Below, piece by piece: positions 13,769 to 46,080 of a stretch of 62,153 nucleotides of DNA. The position numbers and the translations under genes were made by a program. Source of the stretch: an uncultured Candidatus Saccharibacteria bacterium (GTDB taxonomy: Bacteria; Patescibacteriota; Minisyncoccia; Phycocordibacterales; UBA12079); the NCBI GenBank assembly GCA_964486155.1, contig CAZAKQ010000002.1, forward strand, positions 1 to 62,153. Direction: 5' to 3'. The notes beneath the pieces are model-generated. The model made no database searches, had not been told where the DNA came from, and saw only the letters and a list, made by a program, of their open reading frames with translations. Numbering within the stretch: the stretch's first letter is position 1; every line of letters starts with the position of its first letter.

Positions 13769-14410
13769 CTATTTTTTATTTTTAACTTTAAATAAAAATG
13801 AAAACGAAAACATTCCAGGCCAAAATTTATCTAACCAGGCATATTTTCCTAAAGGATAAATTTTTACATCTTCAAAATATTTTTCTAAAATTTGCTTAAA
13901 TTCTTTATAAGAAAAATGGTTAATATGGGTAGGATCTTCTAAAGGAGTTCCTTGTTTTATTCCGAAAAATAATCTTATTCGATTCATTAAAGAAAAAGCA
14001 TTAGGGATAGAACCTAAAAAAACTCCATCTGATTTCAAAACTTTGGTTATTTTCTTTATTATATCTTCTGGATAATATAAATGTTCTAAAACCTCACCTG
14101 CTACCACAACATCAAAATCTCTAGTTAAATTCCAATCATCATATAAATTTAAAGTTTGAGTTTTTATTCCTAAATTATTTTTAGCAATTTCTAAAGCTTC
14201 TTCATCTATGTCTACACCTAAAATCTCATTATTTTTATAATAAGTCTCTGTTAAAACTCCATCGCGACATCCAATATCCAAAACTTTTTTATTTACTCCT
14301 ATTTTTTCTTTTAAGAAATTACCTCTTTCATCTTTTAACAAAGACATTCCGCGTCTACCTCCTTTTTTATGATGTTCTTTATAAATTGTGTTTAATTCTT
14401 TATTTTTCAT
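13769..14410 (-). CDS. class I SAM-dependent methyltransferase
   Basis: VLDIGCRDG motif I and a DVVVAGEVLEH motif. Confidence 0.75.
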   Translation of the reverse strand: MKNKELNTIYKEHHKKGGRRGMSLLKDERGNFLKEKIGVNKKVLDIGCRDGVLTETYYKNNEILGVDIDEEALEIAKNNLGIKTQTLNLYDDWNLTRDFDVVVAGEVLEHLYYPEDIIKKITKVLKSDGVFLGSIPNAFSLMNRIRLFFGIKQGTPLEDPTHINHFSYKEFKQILEKYFEDVKIYPLGKYAWLDKFWPGMFSFSFLFKVKNKK

Positions 14411-15537
14411 TATATTTTTTGATATATTCTTATTATTTTTTTAATTAAATTTTCTAAATTATGATCATCCATAATAATATCTCTTAATCTTTTACCAACT
14501 TTTATTTTTTCTTCTTCTGATAATTTAGAAAGATCATGTATCTTATCTATTAAATCTTTATTATCCTTTTTTTCAAAAAATAATTTATCAACATATTCTC
14601 TAAAAACTTCTTTAGAAGAATCATTACTTGATAATACTAACAATCCACAAGACATTGCTTCTAAAATAGCTTTATCTAAACTTCCTGTCTGGCTTGTATT
14701 AATAAACAAATCTGCTTTATGTAAGTAATTAATAATATTTTTATTAGGAACAGAGCCAACAAAGCTTATTTCTTTTTCTAAACCTTCTTTTTTAACTCTT
14801 TGTTTTAAATTTTCCAAATATTTTGTTTGATCAATTTTTCCTACTCCTCCAACAATGTCTAGTTTAACTTTTAATCCTTTTTCTTTTGAAATTTTTATCG
14901 AATCAATCAAAGTATCATAATCTTTAATTGGAGAAATTCTACCAACAGTTATAATTTTAAATACATTTTCTTTAAAATTATTATCTTTTCTATAAAATTG
15001 ATCTATATTGATTCCATGCCCTGTAATATTTAATTTTTTAGTTTTTATACGAAATGATTCTGGAGTAGCTGAAAAAATAGTGTGAGTTAATTTTTCAGCT
15101 ATTCGTAACTTTAAATCAACAGATTTATGCATATACCACAAACCAATTTTCTTTTGCCATAATCGCCACAAAATGCCCCCTAAAACAATATATTCTGGGT
15201 TCATATGTACAAAAACATTATCGTAATTATGTCTTTCAGTCCAAATATATTTGTAAAAATTTTTTATATATAAAAATTTCTTGAAAATTGAATCATTGAA
15301 AATTGATTGAGAATTGAAAATTGAAAACCTGCCTGCCGGCGAGGTAGGTTGAAAATTATCCTGTTCTTTTCCTAAGGAAAGAACTTTAACATTATTAGGC
15401 AAAGCATATTCTCCCACCTCTAAAGCTATTACTGTAATTTTTTCACAATGCTTGGCAAATTCAGCTACCCAACCATGAAAAAAACCAAGGATATCATCAT
15501 TTTTATTTATTTTTTGTGTTAATATCAATAATTTCAT
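14410..15537 (-). CDS. glycosyltransferase family 1/4 (carries an in-frame repeat insertion)
   Basis: GT-B C-terminal motifs (INTSQTGSLDKAILEAMSCGL). N terminus MKLLILTQK. Confidence 0.8.
   Translation of the reverse strand: MKLLILTQKINKNDDILGFFHGWVAEFAKHCEKITVIALEVGEYALPNNVKVLSLGKEQDNFQPTSPAGRFSIFNSQSIFNDSIFKKFLYIKNFYKYIWTERHNYDNVFVHMNPEYIVLGGILWRLWQKKIGLWYMHKSVDLKLRIAEKLTHTIFSATPESFRIKTKKLNITGHGINIDQFYRKDNNFKENVFKIITVGRISPIKDYDTLIDSIKISKEKGLKVKLDIVGGVGKIDQTKYLENLKQRVKKEGLEKEISFVGSVPNKNIINYLHKADLFINTSQTGSLDKAILEAMSCGLLVLSSNDSSKEVFREYVDKLFFEKKDNKDLIDKIHDLSKLSEEEKIKVGKRLRDIIMDDHNLENLIKKIIRIYQKI
15281..15355. repeat. palindrome-bearing repeat inserted in frame in the glycosyltransferase ORF
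   Basis: gaaaattga/gagaattga word run plus a GC hairpin acctgcctgccggcgaggtaggt (15327-15349). Same building blocks as intergenic repeats elsewhere in the window. Confidence 0.6.
15497..15537. repeat. 41-bp perfect direct repeat, copy 1 (5' end of the GT gene)
   Basis: tcatttttatttattttttgtgttaatatcaataatttcat is identical to 16128-16168. Confidence 0.95.
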
Positions 15538-15600
15538 TTGACTTTTTTTTTATATAGTATACTATAGTAGTAATCATTATAAAAAGCGTCGCCAACCGGG

Positions 15601-16131
15601 TTAGTCCAAAGGTTGGCGCTTTTTGTTTTCATCTTTTTCTTTTTCTATAAAATGCTTAATATCAATCAGATATTTTATAGTTTTCTTCCAACCACAAGCT
15701 TTTCTTAACAAAAAAGAAGTTTTCTTTCTATTTGGACTTAAAACAACCTTAAATTTAACCTTATCTTCTAAATAGTTAACTAAACTAGCAAAATCTCCAT
15801 CACTTGTAATCAAAATAGCTTTGTCGTATTCTAATAAAAGATCAACAGTTGTTAGAGTTAAATCAACATCAACATTACCTTTTGGTTTCTCATTTTTATC
15901 TTGAGAAATTTCTTTAAAAATAATTTCAAAACCAGCATTTTCCAACAAAGAATAAAATTTTTCATTTTCTTCTATATATCCAATAAACCAAAAAGCTTTA
16001 TTAACTTTATATTTATCTTTTAAATAAATTCTCAGTTTAAAAACATCAACAGCCCAACCATCATCTTTTGTTCCAAGGTATAAATTTTGAGCATCTATAA
16101 ATGCATAATTATTCTCTCTATTTTTCCTCAT
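15601..16131 (-). CDS. NYN-domain (LabA/PIN-like) putative ribonuclease
   Basis: N-terminal YAFIDAQNLY and ILITSDGDF motifs typical of NYN/LabA domains. Confidence 0.75.
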   Translation of the reverse strand: MRKNRENNYAFIDAQNLYLGTKDDGWAVDVFKLRIYLKDKYKVNKAFWFIGYIEENEKFYSLLENAGFEIIFKEISQDKNEKPKGNVDVDLTLTTVDLLLEYDKAILITSDGDFASLVNYLEDKVKFKVVLSPNRKKTSFLLRKACGWKKTIKYLIDIKHFIEKEKDENKKRQPLD

Positions 16132-16168
16132 TTTTATTTATTTTTTGTGTTAATATCAATAATTTCAT
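16128..16168. repeat. 41-bp perfect direct repeat, copy 2
   Basis: Identical to 15497-15537. Contains the NYN start codon. Confidence 0.95.
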
Positions 16169-16224
16169 AACCTTATAATTTCATTACACTGACCCCAACT
16201 TGGAAGCTCGGCTTCCAAGTGATA

Positions 16225-17343
16225 TTAATTATTTATTGTTTTACTCCATCCTCTTTGAATCAAAGCTAAATTTTCATTTCTAGATTGTGGAATTTTTTCT
16301 ATAAAATCTTTATAAGCCTTAGTTTTTAATTCTTCCAACAATTCCGGATGTTGTTGAGCATTTTTAATACTTTCTGAAAAACATTTTTTATCACCTACAT
16401 CACACAATAAAGCGTTATTTCCTCTTAAAACTTCTCCTACTATACCTACCTTTGTTGTTAAGATAGGACAACGAGAAACAATAGCTTCAACTAACGCTAA
16501 TCCATATCCTTCATAATTAGAAGCTGATAAAAATAAATCTGCTGTTTTGTAGTAAGAAATTGGATCATCAGTCCAACTTTTAAAAATAATATTTTCTTCT
16601 AAGCCTTTTCTTCTGGCTAATTTCCTTAAATTTTTTCTTTGAGAACCACTTCCTACTATTATTAAACCCGTCTTGGGAAAAACTTTAACAATATCTTTCA
16701 TAGCTGAAATAATTAAGGAAATATTTTTTTCATCTTCTAAACGACTCATTGTTAAAGCTATAAATTTAAATTGAGGATATTTTTCTTTTAAAGAAAAACT
16801 TGGAACAGTCGCCTGAATCAAACTTACACTAGTAAAAATAGGAATTACAGAGATAGCTTTTCTTTGGATATTTCTAGGTAAAGATTGTTTAATTCTTTTA
16901 GAAACAACTCTTATATGATCTGCCTTAGATAAAAGAAATCTAGCTATAAAAGATCTTATTCTATTTAAGAAAGAGTGTTTTACAAAATATTTATTAAACA
17001 AATCTGTATGAATTTGTAATTCCAATTTAATTTTCAATTTCTTAGCAATTCTCCAAGCTATAAATCCTATTTCATAAGCATCTTGAGCAGATACTAAATC
17101 TACTCGGTCTAAATCAAAAGCTATCTTTTTAGCATCTCTAATATATGAAAATTTATTTTTTGAATTAGTAGGATGTAAATGAACATTAGCACTAATTTTT
17201 GTTTTATTAAAAGATTCATTTTCTTTATTTAAAACAATTACATCTATTCTATCAACTAACATTCCATAATTAAATAAGCGATTACGTACATCACTATTTT
17301 CTTCAAATAATTTACGATCTGTACTAATAATTAAAATATTCAT
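16225..17343 (-). CDS. glycosyltransferase family 1
   Basis: GT-B fold motifs (LSASNYEGYGLALVEAIVSRCPILTT). Confidence 0.8.
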   Translation of the reverse strand: MNILIISTDRKLFEENSDVRNRLFNYGMLVDRIDVIVLNKENESFNKTKISANVHLHPTNSKNKFSYIRDAKKIAFDLDRVDLVSAQDAYEIGFIAWRIAKKLKIKLELQIHTDLFNKYFVKHSFLNRIRSFIARFLLSKADHIRVVSKRIKQSLPRNIQRKAISVIPIFTSVSLIQATVPSFSLKEKYPQFKFIALTMSRLEDEKNISLIISAMKDIVKVFPKTGLIIVGSGSQRKNLRKLARRKGLEENIIFKSWTDDPISYYKTADLFLSASNYEGYGLALVEAIVSRCPILTTKVGIVGEVLRGNNALLCDVGDKKCFSESIKNAQQHPELLEELKTKAYKDFIEKIPQSRNENLALIQRGWSKTINN

Positions 17344-17552: not shown

Positions 17553-18644
17553 CTAATATTTTAATATTTGAACTAAATTATCTAGAGTTTTTTCTATAGA
17601 AAATTGCTTAGATTTATTAAAAGCATTTTGAGTTATCTTTTTTCTAAATTCATCATTCCCTAGAATCTTTATTATCGCACTTAATATTTGCTCTTTGTTA
17701 TTAGGCTTAATTAAAATTCCATCCATATTATCCTGAATTAATTCAGGATTACCTCCAATGTTGGTTGTAATAATTGGAACTTTTAACTTAGCTACTTCAA
17801 TTAATTGATGAGCAAAACCTTCATATTGTGTATTTAAGATAAAAATATTAACTTTTTTAATTAATTTTAAAACTTTTTCTCTCTCCAATTTACCTATTAA
17901 AAAAACTTTGTCTTTTAAATCTAAAATTTTAATTATTTTCTCTAGTTCTTCTCGTTGTGGGCCTTCTCCTACTATTTTCAATTTCAAATTAGGATAATAT
18001 TTTAGAATTTCAGGCATACTTTTAATCAAAACATCAAAACCTTTCCAAGGAACTAATCTCCCTACCGACAATAGCACTTTTTTATCACTTGGGGGTAGCA
18101 CCCCCAAGTCTTTAGAAAGTTCTATTCCGTTATAGATTACTTTAATTTTTTCTGACTCTATTCCCCAATTTTCAATTATTCCCTTAAAATATTTACTTGG
18201 TACTATTATAGACTCAGCAGTAGAAGCTACTTTTTTTTGAATCTTTTTTAAAATTTTAACTTTCCAATTATATTTACTATATTCTAAACAAAAATCATCT
18301 AAATTATCTTTAACTCCAAATCTCTGCACTCCTTGTTCCCAAGCATAGTCTCCAGCCACCCGTATTAAAAATCTTTTTTTTAAAATCTTATTAGCCAACA
18401 TAGTTGGTAAACCTACACTTACAGGATCTTGGGCATAAATAATATCTACTCTCTTAGATCTTTTTAAAATTTTGAAGAAATAAACAAAATGCCTAATTAT
18501 TTTAGGTAAATAACGCACTTCTCCAAAAGGCAAAACCTCCACTTTTATTCCTCTTTCTGGTAATTTATCAAAAAGCAACTTTGAGTAAGTTGCAGGTCCT
18601 CCAATATCTGGCGGATATATCCCTGTAGTAATTAATATTTTCAT
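17553..18644 (-). CDS. glycosyltransferase family 4
   Basis: MKILITTGIYPPDIGGPATY N terminus and an EGFAHQLIEVAKLKVPIITT motif. Confidence 0.85.
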   Translation of the reverse strand: MKILITTGIYPPDIGGPATYSKLLFDKLPERGIKVEVLPFGEVRYLPKIIRHFVYFFKILKRSKRVDIIYAQDPVSVGLPTMLANKILKKRFLIRVAGDYAWEQGVQRFGVKDNLDDFCLEYSKYNWKVKILKKIQKKVASTAESIIVPSKYFKGIIENWGIESEKIKVIYNGIELSKDLGVLPPSDKKVLLSVGRLVPWKGFDVLIKSMPEILKYYPNLKLKIVGEGPQREELEKIIKILDLKDKVFLIGKLEREKVLKLIKKVNIFILNTQYEGFAHQLIEVAKLKVPIITTNIGGNPELIQDNMDGILIKPNNKEQILSAIIKILGNDEFRKKITQNAFNKSKQFSIEKTLDNLVQILKY

Positions 18645-32507: not shown

Positions 32508-32578
32508 TTGCGGGAGCCTGACTTGAACAGACACCTGGAGGTTATGAGCCTCCCGTGCAACCTTTACACCATCCCGCG
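32508..32578 (-). tRNA. tRNA-fMet (anticodon CAU), initiator-like
   Basis: C1-A72 mismatch (cgcggga / tcccgca), anticodon stem ggagg/cctcc, loop ctCATaa, T loop ttcaagt. Confidence 0.7.
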
Positions 32579-32790
32579 ATATACTATTTAGTTTTAAAAC
32601 AAATTTATTCTTGTAACTCATAACCAAAGGTTATGAGTCTATGGATCCTATCGCGTGCAACCTTTACACCATCCCGCGATATACTATTTAGTTTTAAAAC
32701 AAATTTATTCTTGTAACTCATAACCAAAGGTTATGAGTCTATGGATCCTATCGCGTGCAACCTTTACACCATCCCGCGATATATTTAGTT
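32554..32790. repeat. 100-bp tandem repeat, about 2.3 copies, each containing the 5' 25 nt of tRNA-fMet
   Basis: 32554-32653 is identical to 32654-32753. A third partial copy starts at 32754 and has a 3-nt deletion. Confidence 0.9.
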
Positions 32791-39197: not shown

Positions 39198-39776
39198 TTA
39201 CTGCCAATTAAATAATCTCTCTTTTATAGTAAATTGATGCTCATTTGGACCTCCAATCCAAAACATATTAACTACAATTTCAAGCTCTTTATTTGCTGTA
39301 ATTTCTGTAATTTGAACTTCTCTTCTAAAACGAGATTCATCTCCTGTTGAATAACCAAAAAGATAACTAGAAGAATTATATTTCAAATTTTCACAGTCAT
39401 TACTACAAGAATCGATACTTTCGTTTGGTGAATCTATTTTACATTTGCTTCCAATACAATCTGTTAGCCCATAAGTCCAGCTTCTTTCATTCAAAATATT
39501 ATTATCTCTAATATTTCTGATATACTCTATAGCTTCTTGCGCCAAATACATTGAAGTTATTTGACTTTTTGCTATTTTTGAAATAGATAAGCCTTTAGTT
39601 ACTAAAGTTAAAGGACCGGCCATAGCAATTATTAAAATAGTTATCGCTATGAAAGTTTCTATTAAAGTAAATCCAGCATTATTTCTTCTATTATGAAAAG
39701 TTATTTTAAATTTTAAATCTTCCTGTTGTTTAACAGTTTTAAAATAAGATTTAAAATTTAAGATTATTTTGTTCAT
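39198..39776 (-). CDS. prepilin-type minor pilin
   Basis: N-terminal methylation motif AGFTLIETFIAITIL. Confidence 0.7.
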   Translation of the reverse strand: MNKIILNFKSYFKTVKQQEDLKFKITFHNRRNNAGFTLIETFIAITILIIAMAGPLTLVTKGLSISKIAKSQITSMYLAQEAIEYIRNIRDNNILNERSWTYGLTDCIGSKCKIDSPNESIDSCSNDCENLKYNSSSYLFGYSTGDESRFRREVQITEITANKELEIVVNMFWIGGPNEHQFTIKERLFNWQ

Positions 39777-45982: not shown

Positions 45983-46080
45983 AAACACGAATTTTGGCTC
46001 CGCCAAAATTCGTCAACATTGGAAATTTAAACATTGAAAATTCCTTGAAAATTATGAATTATGAATTGAAAATTTTTTTA
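45983..46080. repeat. intergenic repeat in the pilB-pilT spacer (58-nt core identical to 49442-49499)
   Basis: attttggctccgccaaaattcgtcaacattggaaatttaaacattgaaaattccttga at 45991-46048. Confidence 0.9.

Follow-up and report, generated by a model that had tools for sequence, protein, structure and literature searches.

A probable selfish cassette of a NYN nuclease gene and a convergent small-RNA gene at the duplicated start of a glycosyltransferase gene in a Saccharibacteria genome

In an uncultured Candidatus Saccharibacteria bacterium, a GT4-family glycosyltransferase gene, here termed GT2, is directly preceded by an insert of about 590 nt, which extends from the start of a predicted NYN nuclease gene to the promoter of a small-RNA (sRNA) gene and is one copy of a cassette widespread in Patescibacteria. 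The cassette comprises a promoter-less NYN gene and a convergent antisense RNA gene of about 58 nt, with a hairpin predicted to end both transcripts, and it is bracketed by two copies of the first 41 nt of GT2. The reading we prefer, with a probability of roughly 0.55, is that the cassette is selfish and spreads horizontally, and that it came in through recombination for which the conserved 5' end of GT2 was the anchor, its opposite side being sealed at an A-rich/ATGA microhomology. An earlier note on this DNA had proposed a small NYN cassette, possibly selfish, that was inserted, or captured by duplication, at the duplicated 5' end of the glycosyltransferase gene. This reading is supported by the variable content of the site in relatives, the occurrence of NYN genes in other contexts and an enrichment of duplications around them, the selfish nature being probable. 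Positions given below are those of the window, namely the whole analyzed stretch of 62,153 nt (contig CAZAKQ010000002.1 of assembly GCA_964486155.1); the genome under study is labeled G000.

The ORF of GT2 (14410..15537, minus strand) is intact and, together with its Pfam matches, defines a glycosyltransferase of 375 aa. Its true start, nt 1-41 of the gene, lies at 15497-15537 (minus strand; copy A) and recurs as a stub of the GT2 5' end at 16128-16168 (minus strand; copy B), with 41/41 nt identical in direct orientation at a spacing of 631 nt. The repeat can be extended to 44 nt with one mismatch. It ranks third by length among the exact direct repeats of the window, against a longest repeat of 17–20 nt in each of 20 first-order Markov simulations. 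The perfect 41-bp duplication claimed in the earlier note is thereby borne out, as are its further observations that the repeat carries the ATG and first 13 codons of the glycosyltransferase gene on the minus strand and that the upstream copy opens a dead-end ORF of 16 codons (16118-16168, minus strand; MKLLILTQKINKNEEK followed by a stop). The last 4 nt of copy B (ATGA) contain the start codon of the NYN gene. A third, partial copy of the GT2 start (ATGAAATTAT) can be read at 16175-16184 (minus strand), 6 nt upstream of copy B; these 10 nt have no explanation under the favored model.

The genome is a metagenome-assembled draft in 29 contigs, and a repeat made by mis-joined reads, which the earlier note had named as a possible refutation, had to be considered. 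ENA assemblies of no fewer than 4 separate samples contain both copies at unchanged spacing; two of these assemblies represent strain variants that are 99.8% identical and show 10–11 differences over 6 kb. Because the arrangement recurs in these independent assemblies, the duplication is not an artefact of assembly. Moreover, both ORFs are intact and 41 nt is shorter than the usual read length, and we give practically no credence to a mis-join.

The left neighbor of the cassette, upstream of GT2, is a second GT4-family gene, GT1 (16225..17343, minus strand; 372 aa; Pfam Glycos_transf_1 3e-32 and Glyco_transf_4), the orthologues of which in relatives show 54–73% amino acid identity. In relatives the slot between GT1 and GT2 is variable, being occupied by a NYN gene of type A or type B, a MazF-like gene, a GIY-YIG gene or an orphan sRNA gene, or else being empty. 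The comparison for empty sites advocated in the earlier note thus recovered empty sites and orphan scars as well as other occupants, and the situation that it had regarded as refuting, namely all relatives carrying the same arrangement with diverged repeats, does not obtain. Within the genus, where the flanks are 62–75% identical, the slot holds a type B NYN gene (G002; 45% identity), a MazF-like gene (G004 and G005) or only orphan sRNA genes (G001 and G003), the orphans being of type B, and none of the genus's other five genomes has NYN type A at this position. In genomes of other genera (G012, G010 and G013), the flanks are 41–65% identical and the NYN genes 78–81%, so that NYN similarity does not track flank similarity. 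The nearest NYN relatives also occupy other gene contexts: type A is observed before GT1-like genes in G010, G018 and L140, behind a pilin gene in L132, and as a tandem array before a ComF-like gene in L133. The observed distribution is therefore both patchy and incongruent with that of the neighboring genes.

The two junctions differ in their conservation. The right junction, in which the -35 box of the sRNA gene abuts the ATG of the next gene ("GTCAATG"), is common to G000 and four other genomes of its genus (G001, G002, G003 and G005), and is also found in G013, G010, G018, L140 and L145. The left junction occurs in G000 alone, which is likewise the only member among the family's relatives with a flanking repeat of at least 12 nt spanning the NYN gene. 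Across the family, the first ~180 nt of GT2 are better conserved than the rest of the gene, and many genomes match query positions 946-1128, corresponding to this 5' part, at 71–81%. An interpretation of these ~180 nt as a co-conversion tract was rejected, as they are conserved in all genomes, with or without the cassette. A perfect palindromic hairpin after the GT1 stop codon (16195..16221), which lacks a T-run on the coding strand, lies outside the cassette and is a copy of a dispersed palindromic element, with 100% matches of 26–27 nt at several sites of G031, a genome of another family.

The wide occurrence of the right junction also bears on a scenario without recent transfer, in which NYN type A would have been inherited vertically in the slot, and copy B would have been generated locally by replication slippage or unequal exchange at an ATGA/A-rich microhomology followed by partial deletion. 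In its favor, the adjacency of NYN and GT2 with this junction is ancient and occurs widely across the family, NYN genes are also known in tandem arrays (L042, L109 and L133), and the third, 10-nt copy of the GT2 start hints at stuttering at the site. However, unequal exchange would yield two NYN copies, and a second, precise deletion would be needed to leave a 41-nt stub. The absence of type A from the slot in the other five genomes of the genus and the presence of comparable scar repeats at unrelated genes elsewhere in other genomes further weaken this scenario, which we consider improbable.

The NYN gene (15601..16131, minus strand) encodes a LabA/MARF1-like protein of 176 aa with a PIN-type fold, which matches PF01936 with E=5e-19 (69.7 bits against a cut-off of 24.2) over residues 11-146, the PADLOC model "NYN" with 6.5e-7 and PDB 2qip with 2.7e-11. 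In an alignment of 64 homologues, D13, D88, D111 and D113 are at least 95% conserved and D90 85–95%, and in one of 41 homologues D13, D111 and D113 are invariant and D88 and D90 at least 90% conserved. As judged from these residues the acidic active site is intact, with nuclease activity and substrate remaining untested. An AF2 model (pLDDT 89.7, pTM 0.85), the top Foldseek matches of which are 2qip (E=1e-10; TM 0.75–0.81) and the NYN domain of MARF1 (E=8e-6), allows the confident prediction of a PIN-like α/β fold. The protein is thus placed by sequence, fold and acidic active site with the NYN/LabA family (PF01936; PDB 2qip; MARF1 NYN domain 5yaa/6fdl). MARF1, a NYN relative of solved structure with known activity, is an RNase; the bacterial LabA-like members are, to our knowledge, uncharacterized, and none has been described within a mobile cassette. 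The family is carried by 199 of 301 sampled genomes of the class, and the NYN matches listed among these 301 genomes are all free-standing, with lengths of 160–266 aa, none of those listed lying inside an intein. Within the collection, 34 blocks contain a protein identical to that of G000, and no donor or relative of the G000 NYN protein above 85% identity was detected among 5.8 billion proteins.

The NYN start codon occupies nt 38-40 of copy B and, as the earlier note had stated, lies inside the duplicated segment. Because the NYN genes of relatives begin with ATGAGA or ATGAAA, it most likely represents the NYN gene's own start, the ATG forming the microhomology of the junction and not having been borrowed from the glycosyltransferase gene. 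Overlap of the NYN start with the end of an upstream ORF, as would be expected of translational coupling, is not a hallmark of these genes (30/80 versus 82/229 controls, p=0.79). A reading of the locus as a defense system was likewise rejected, resting as it does only on the weak PADLOC "NYN" match without partner genes.

The small-RNA gene (15538..15629, plus strand) was identified by promoter scanning and a covariance model and is convergent with the NYN gene. Its predicted promoter, TTGACT-16-TACTAT, has the -35 box at 15538-15543, adjoining the GT2 start codon without a spacer, and the -10 box at 15560-15565. The predicted transcript of ~58 nt (~15572-15629), for which there are no expression data, is antisense to the 3' end of the NYN mRNA and overlaps the last ~29 nt of the NYN ORF together with the 3' UTR. 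A hairpin at about 15579-15626, overlapping the last NYN codons and the stop, folds with -20 to -21 kcal/mol (z = -3.7 to -3.8) and is both a bidirectional terminator and the body of the sRNA, again in the absence of expression data. Covariation is seen at 11 of the 13 stem pairs across 48 loci, with an observed score reached by 0/500 shuffles, and the combination TTGAC-N16-18-TAnnnT, hairpin and T-run follows 68 of 80 NYN genes. The covariance model R1 matches 15564-15628 at 43 bits; a search of Rfam with the RNA returned no family, the best matches having E>2. The hairpin and the AT-rich, promoter-like stretch (tatagtatactata) described in the earlier note are present in the window, but the latter is read as part of the opposite-strand sRNA gene that is conserved at these 68 NYN genes rather than as a fresh promoter for the glycosyltransferase gene. 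The loop sequence of the sRNA is also conserved, and this may point to protein binding instead of antisense pairing.

A search for further NYN genes with flanking duplications, another follow-up put forward in the earlier note, recovered such duplications at 16/79 NYN loci as against 6/231 control placements (odds ratio 9.5, p=1.8e-6). They measure 22–154 nt and are located at either the 3' or the 5' end of genes, between genes or, in arrays, at the NYN gene's own 5' end, so that a like scar is found at unrelated genes in other genomes. The cassette ends vary, with the distance from repeat to NYN start ranging from -4 to 220 nt and that from -35 box to repeat from 0 to about 50 nt. The observed enrichment, along with the perfect or near-perfect state of several repeats (41/41 in G000, 22/22 in L055, 26/26 in L089 and 110/112 in L075), could be taken to favor a transposition-like insertion, in which NYN or a factor acting in trans would cut the target with a stagger of tens of bases and gap filling would produce a true 41-nt target-site duplication. 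Yet the criteria for an insertion sequence, transposon or MITE are not met: the unit has neither a transposase nor an integrase, it lacks defined termini, and the repeats vary in length and distance as given above. Further, 63/79 NYN loci have no flanking repeat, and the solved NYN relatives of known activity are RNases (MARF1, which is also a fold match). Finally, the duplication in G000 begins exactly at the junction between sRNA promoter and ATG that is free of duplication in other genomes, which would be an unlikely coincidence for a de novo staggered cut. We therefore regard a transposition-like origin as unlikely.

The older duplications allow the histories of the two copies to be compared, which the identical copies of G000 do not, as they are uninformative on which copy is foreign. 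At four loci, to which this test is confined, 27 of 35 differing nucleotides fall in codons with an unchanged amino acid, the frame being fixed by the intact gene; the share expected is 19.6% under neutrality (p=3e-13) and 31% for a neutral stub beside a constrained gene (p=2e-8). Since the older copies differ mostly at synonymous sites, both must have had separate histories in different lineages. Within the reach of such sequence data, this excess establishes horizontal movement, although not how the duplication first arose, and it would also follow from a later spread of the finished cassette and stub by two-sided homologous recombination.

In one older case (L114), the copies are 77% and 72% identical to 11 orthologues, and neither is clearly native. 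Hybrid copies would fit this finding and could result from a single crossover of the Campbell type within the 41 nt, by which a donor fragment circularized through illegitimate joining, and bearing NYN, the sRNA gene and some 41 nt from the beginning of GT2, would have been integrated. A unit flanked by perfect 41-nt repeats is the classical product of such a crossover, which also accounts for a duplication beginning at the native sRNA|ATG junction. It would nevertheless require two rare steps, circularization at a microhomology and a RecA crossover in only 41 nt, whereas for one-sided repair hundreds of bases homologous to GT2 are available. Neither a circular form nor an excision junction has been seen, and the cassette is without a replication or integration function. 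The likelihood of this route appears low, and comparable to that of a history without recent transfer.

We accordingly return to one-sided recombination as the preferred reading, its pathway being inferred. The cassette would have arrived already joined to a GT2 5' end, an arrangement known from other genera, and the conserved GT2 5' region would have served as homologous anchor on the right side, either by one-sided repair of a double-strand break or, following DNA uptake, by homology-facilitated illegitimate recombination. On the left, where homology was lacking, the ends would have been sealed at an A-rich/ATGA microhomology between nt 27-41 of the recipient GT2 and the NYN start. The sequence before the NYN ATG in the type A relative L140 is AATAAATAAAATATGA and nt 27-41 of GT2 are AATAAATAAAAATGA; on alignment these offer a possible microhomology of 11+4 nt. 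Since the search revealed no NYN relative above 85% identity, both the arrangement in the donor and the precise extent of the microhomology are inferences drawn from relatives of 76–85%. The outcome would be GT2 nt 1-41 in two copies, a stub before NYN and an intact gene start, and GT2 survives the insertion because its first 41 bases exist twice. NYN would then be transcribed and translated from the former GT2 start region, with GT2 possibly expressed by read-through or from a weak sense promoter within the cassette. The antisense RNA is inferred to restrain NYN, for which toxicity is also an inference, in the manner of a type I-like toxin-antitoxin pair, and this might prevent loss of the cassette.

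In homology-facilitated illegitimate events the recipient usually loses DNA and does not gain a duplication, and work on Acinetobacter and S. pneumoniae has reportedly placed them in naturally transformable bacteria; competence of the G000 organism has not been shown. They resemble the proposed event in that foreign DNA is integrated through homology on one side and through a microhomology on the opposite side. Integration with illegitimate joining opposite a homologous end is documented (PMC3240628). One-sided homing with microhomology junctions is similarly documented for T4 introns (review PMC2988022).

The free-standing homing endonuclease genes of phages resemble the cassette in that a small nuclease gene lies between conserved genes and is patchy among relatives. 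They spread with flanking host sequence, and a single homologous flank leads to a microhomology at the other junction; for the cassette a like co-transfer is only inferred. The criterion of a position between conserved genes with sporadic presence in close relatives is met by NYN. However, homing endonucleases are of the GIY-YIG, HNH or LAGLIDADG types and reside in phages, whereas the cassette encodes a NYN/PIN-fold protein, for which DNA cleavage has not been shown, and resides in a cellular genome. Unlike homing endonuclease genes, it also carries an antisense RNA gene and often lies inside gene ends, with a gene-rescuing duplication. A bolder proposal would be that the NYN family comprises DNA-cutting mobility enzymes which, with the antisense RNA, form an undescribed class of mobile elements of CPR bacteria and also DPANN archaea, invading gene starts or ends by break-induced one-sided copying, with a variable duplication rescuing the host gene and the promoter being hijacked; we offer this only as a speculative possibility, which on present evidence remains doubtful.

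Type I toxin-antitoxin loci with convergent antisense RNAs overlapping at the 3' end include txpA/RatA and bsrG/SR4 of B. subtilis and par/Fst of E. faecalis. The cassette shares with them a convergent sRNA with its own σ70-type promoter, a 3' overlap and a shared bidirectional terminator; a further parallel is that the RNA gene persists as an orphan in genomes that have lost the protein gene (G001 and G003). The type I criterion of an antisense RNA gene overlapping the toxin transcript is met, with transcription itself not shown, and that of a small hydrophobic peptide toxin is not: type I toxins are small membrane peptides, whereas NYN is a soluble, predicted nuclease of 176 aa, for which neither toxicity nor an RNA-RNA interaction has been demonstrated. 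The adjacent small antitoxin gene of type II systems is missing, in that no AbrB/MazE-like gene lies beside the G000 NYN gene; such a gene precedes NYN only in G013 and G002, and AbrB/MazE was rejected as a general antitoxin (1/80 loci). Tandem RNA repeats upstream of the toxin, as in type III systems, are not found at the locus, where the RNA gene is single and convergent. Integron cassettes and CALIN arrays are similar in combining a promoter-less ORF with a structured 3' element, sometimes in tandem, and in expression from a host promoter. Their 3' element is attC, as opposed to the promoter-plus-terminator RNA gene of the NYN cassette, the borders of which vary, and we know of no integron recombination that yields duplications of 22–154 nt.

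CPR bacteria have tiny genomes with few classical mobile elements. The literature searched describes neither NYN-plus-sRNA cassettes nor homing by NYN genes. If the preferred reading is true, a common selfish module of a nuclease and an antisense RNA, without an Rfam family and not found described, would have been identified. For annotation, short "start" stubs and orphan RNA genes would be scars rather than genes, and NYN genes within glycan operons would be passengers rather than pathway enzymes. It would further reveal how a gene can be inserted within the opening codons of another that is functional, and in some cases essential, and leave it alive, and, with homology on one side and microhomology on the other, this would constitute a testable route of gene flow in organisms not yet open to manipulation.

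Over the glycosyltransferase locus of the window, positions 15497-15537 are identical to 16128-16168 across 41 nt (44 nt if one mismatch is allowed), with the two copies spaced 631 nt apart from start to start. This direct repeat ranks as the third-longest exact one in the window, and the longest repeat in 20 first-order Markov simulations at 27.9% G+C was at most 20 nt. All genes at the locus lie on the reverse strand. In reading order they comprise the glycosyltransferase genes GT0 (17553-18644) and GT1 (16225-17343), a perfect palindrome following the GT1 stop (16195-16221), copy B of the repeat (16128-16168), the NYN ORF (15601-16131), a hairpin, an AT-rich stretch, and GT2 (14410-15537), whose first 41 nt constitute copy A (15497-15537) and which is succeeded by a methyltransferase gene. 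Copy B opens a dead-end ORF (MKLLILTQKINKNEEK*), and nt 38-40 of this copy form the NYN ATG; the earlier note had accurately described the 41/41 identity, the spacing, the abortive ORF and the placement of this ATG. Other long exact direct repeats in the window are a 130-nt repeat with a spacing of 100 in a tandem array (32554-32783), a 58-nt repeat at 45991/49442 (spacing 3.4 kb), and a 32-nt repeat at 39753/40993 (spacing 1.2 kb). The palindrome at 16195-16221 has 100% matches over 26-27 nt at several sites of a genome from another family (G031) and 82-96% matches in two further relatives (G001 and G014), and is probably a small dispersed palindromic element. The interior of GT2 contains an in-frame insertion of a ~75-nt dispersed repeat (15281-15357, reverse strand) coding for NFQPTSPAGRFSIFNSQSIFNDSIFKKF, which is made of 'ttgaaaattgaaaa' runs and a hairpin, cctgcctgccggcgaggtagg, and has 80-93% matches at many sites in the same genome (G000; 657 kb, 29 contigs, 98% complete) and its relatives.

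The exact NYN and GT2 proteins were recovered from 34 and 30 blocks, respectively, of the assembly collection. Both repeat copies, with identical spacing, are present on contigs from at least 4 different samples, two of these contigs coming from variant strains (10-11 differences in 6 kb). Hence, the arrangement is not an artefact but exists in natural populations, in which it appears to be fixed. In the strain variants L118 and L119, two genes of 65/66 and 282 aa stand in place of GT0, through a frameshift or as a variant; the window has the intact gene (363 aa).

The activities known for NYN proteins are on RNA. By sequence and predicted fold the protein of the insert is a bona fide NYN/LabA-type PIN-fold nuclease: it matches PF01936 with 69.7 bits and PDB 2qip at 2.7e-11, its confident structural model (pLDDT 89.7) finds 2qip and the MARF1 NYN domain as best matches, and the acidic residues D13, D88, D90, D111 and D113 are conserved across 41-64 homologues. 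Members of the family occur in 199 of the 301 genomes sampled from the class. The relatives carry taxon labels such as Parcubacteria, Paceibacterota and Patescibacteria.

The region between the NYN gene and GT2 had been read in the earlier note as a hairpin followed by a fresh promoter for GT2. Hairpin and supposed promoter together are instead a predicted small RNA (sRNA) gene on the opposite strand, with a -35 box TTGACT (15538-15543, forward strand) directly adjoining the GT2 start codon (spacer 0) and, after 16 nt, a -10 box TACTAT (15560-15565). The predicted ~58-nt transcript closes with the hairpin and a T-run. It is antisense to the NYN 3' UTR and to the final ~29 nt of the ORF, and its hairpin can act as terminator of both the NYN and the sRNA transcripts. 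A common design, namely TTGAC-N16-18-TAnnnT, a short conserved leader, a hairpin with the loop GGUUYCGUCC and a T-run, is found behind 68 of the 80 NYN genes retrieved from other genomes. Compensatory changes are seen at 11 of the 13 base pairs in the hairpin stem, covariation as strong as this was attained in 0 of 500 shuffles, and 81% of cells are paired, as against 42-54% in slid registers. The hairpin is retained both where the NYN stop codon lies inside it and where the stop precedes it; therefore, protein coding does not explain its conservation. No Rfam family matching the sRNA was found. Two orphan copies without an adjacent NYN gene occur elsewhere in the same genome (G000:C8:24419-24484, forward, and G000:C4:34611-34673, reverse; 31.9 and 26.4 bits), one being convergent with a pheS-like gene and the other lying behind an IS200/RAYT-like transposase gene.

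What lies between GT1 and GT2 differs across the family. Among members of the same genus, it holds an AbrB/MazE-like gene and a type-B NYN with 45% identity (G002), a MazF/PemK-like gene accompanied by another kind of convergent hairpin RNA (G004 and G005), or merely the final NYN codons and an orphan sRNA gene of type B (G001 and G003; 45 and 61 bits with R1, the covariance model of the NYN-associated sRNA). In other genera, type-A NYN genes (81% and 78%) precede GT2 in G012 and G013, whereas G010 has a type-A NYN before GT1, a GIY-YIG gene in the GT1/GT2 slot and a type-B NYN further up. The empty site whose existence the earlier note had raised is seen in G006 and G011, where GT1 abuts GT2 without an insert. 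Within the genus the flanks are 62-75% identical, yet the NYN belongs to another type or is missing; in the genera with NYNs of 78-81% identity the flanks are just 41-65% identical. NYN similarity thus runs opposite to flank similarity. Further NYN relatives (73-85%) mostly lie before GT4 genes, although one follows a pilin gene and another belongs to a tandem NYN-NYN array that precedes a ComF-like gene; none above 85% identity was found among 5.8 billion proteins.

Several neighbouring genes were observed in these slots. The MazF/PemK-like gene (loci L021 and L023 of G004 and G005) has its own convergent promoter and hairpin unit without a match to the NYN sRNA model, and so the same cassette design may be used by different toxin-like genes. 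The AbrB/MazE-like gene of 59 aa lies directly upstream of the NYN in L010 (G013; ~330-580 of the extracted stretch) and L020 (G002), its stop overlapping the NYN start (ATGA) in the former and lying 6 nt before it in the latter; a long palindrome, ACTGTATAATTAACTGTACAGTTAATTATACAGT, that resembles an autoregulated operator lies ahead of it. Adjacent intergenic slots in these glycosyltransferase clusters contain small genes for GIY-YIG nucleases (L024 of G010, 2577-2861; L140; L145), the one in L145 being preceded by a start-codon hairpin element ('ATGAATCCCGTTAGAG').

Flanking duplications, which the earlier note had proposed to seek around other NYN cassettes, are indeed recurrent. In 79 NYN loci we compared a segment running from 350 nt before the ATG to 45 nt into the gene with the 450 nt after the stop, taking the best ungapped match; a score of at least 18 was reached in 16 of 79 loci. 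Control placements with this geometry within these loci reached it in 6 of 231 cases (odds ratio 9.5, Fisher p=1.8e-6, a guide only because the loci are related). The duplicated segment is the 3' end of the upstream gene in L075 (112 nt of the gyrB 3' end), L040, L051 and L114, the 5' part of the downstream gene in L080 and G000, the NYN's own conserved 5' end in the tandem arrays L042, L109 and L133, and intergenic DNA in L055, L089, L091, L102, L107 and L112. Duplication lengths range from 22 to 154 nt, and the distances from repeat to NYN start and from sRNA promoter to repeat are likewise variable. A classical transposase insertion is therefore disfavoured, since the cassette has neither defined termini nor a fixed stagger. 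At four loci where an intact gene fixes the reading frame, 27 of 35 differing nucleotides between copies fall in codons with an unchanged amino acid, against 19.6% expected from random changes (p=3e-13) and ~31% from a neutral stub beside a constrained gene (p=2e-8). As the differences are mostly synonymous, both copies of these older scars evolved within working genes of different lineages before being joined, a conclusion based on four loci, and the cassette and one copy have moved horizontally relative to the host gene. At L114, comparison with 11 orthologues gave 77% identity for one copy and 72% for the other, which does not single out either as foreign. The synonymous excess alone is silent on how the duplication first forms.

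The junctions bear on this origin. The right junction, 'GTCAATG', in which the sRNA -35 box lies on the ATG of the next gene, recurs in at least 9 other loci, which carry type A, type B or orphan RNAs; the one on the left is unique to G000. The NYN ATG lies inside the duplicated segment, as the earlier note had observed, and is most likely the NYN's own, because type-A NYN genes all begin with ATGA (L132: ATGAGAAAG; G000: ATGAGGAAA). The sequence upstream of the NYN ATG in L140 is AATAAATAAAATATGA, and nt 27-41 of GT2 are AATAAATAAAAATGA. Conservation within GT2 is highest over its first ~180 nt (71-81% even between families). Following a break within the first GT2 codons, donor DNA comprising NYN, sRNA gene and GT2 5' end would pair with the recipient GT2, and the non-homologous NYN side would be sealed to the recipient at A-rich/ATGA microhomology 41 nt into GT2, giving recipient nt 1-41, the cassette, nt 1-41 and the rest of GT2. 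One-sided homology with microhomology joining is the simplest path and most likely the origin of this structure. For T4 introns, one-sided homing that leaves microhomology junctions has been documented (PMC2988022), and transformation and conjugation provide known cases of integration in which a single end is homologous (PMC3240628). If a circularised fragment had integrated by a Campbell-type single crossover, the same product would result, and this route is kept as a rival. A purely local slip requires a further precise deletion and is inconsistent with the other slot occupants in the genus. In L132 (~1771-1860) the glycosyltransferase gene after a type-A NYN starts at an ATG within the sRNA promoter region, with the -35 box (GTCAAG) translated as V-K; here a cassette end seems to have fused independently to codon 3 of the gene.

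With only a few bases between stub and ATG, the NYN gene lacks a promoter of its own, and its expression must come from the former start region of GT2. GT2 itself would be expressed by read-through of the hairpin or from a weak sense promoter, for which TTTATA-16-TATACT is a candidate. We favour the interpretation of NYN and sRNA as a type I-like nuclease/antisense-RNA addiction module, given that the convergent sRNA is conserved and persists as an orphan after NYN loss (G001 and G003, and twice in G000), as expected of an antitoxin; toxicity, transcription and the role of the RNA are inferred. NYN may, in addition, produce the DNA break from which transfer would start. The AbrB/MazE partner is rare (1 of 80 NYN loci). 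In the literature, as far as we could find, NYN and sRNA cassettes of this sort are undescribed. We class the cassette as a variety of the free-standing homing-endonuclease-like or toxin-antitoxin-like selfish genes rather than as a separate category, its toxicity being an inference and DNA cleavage by it no more than a possibility.
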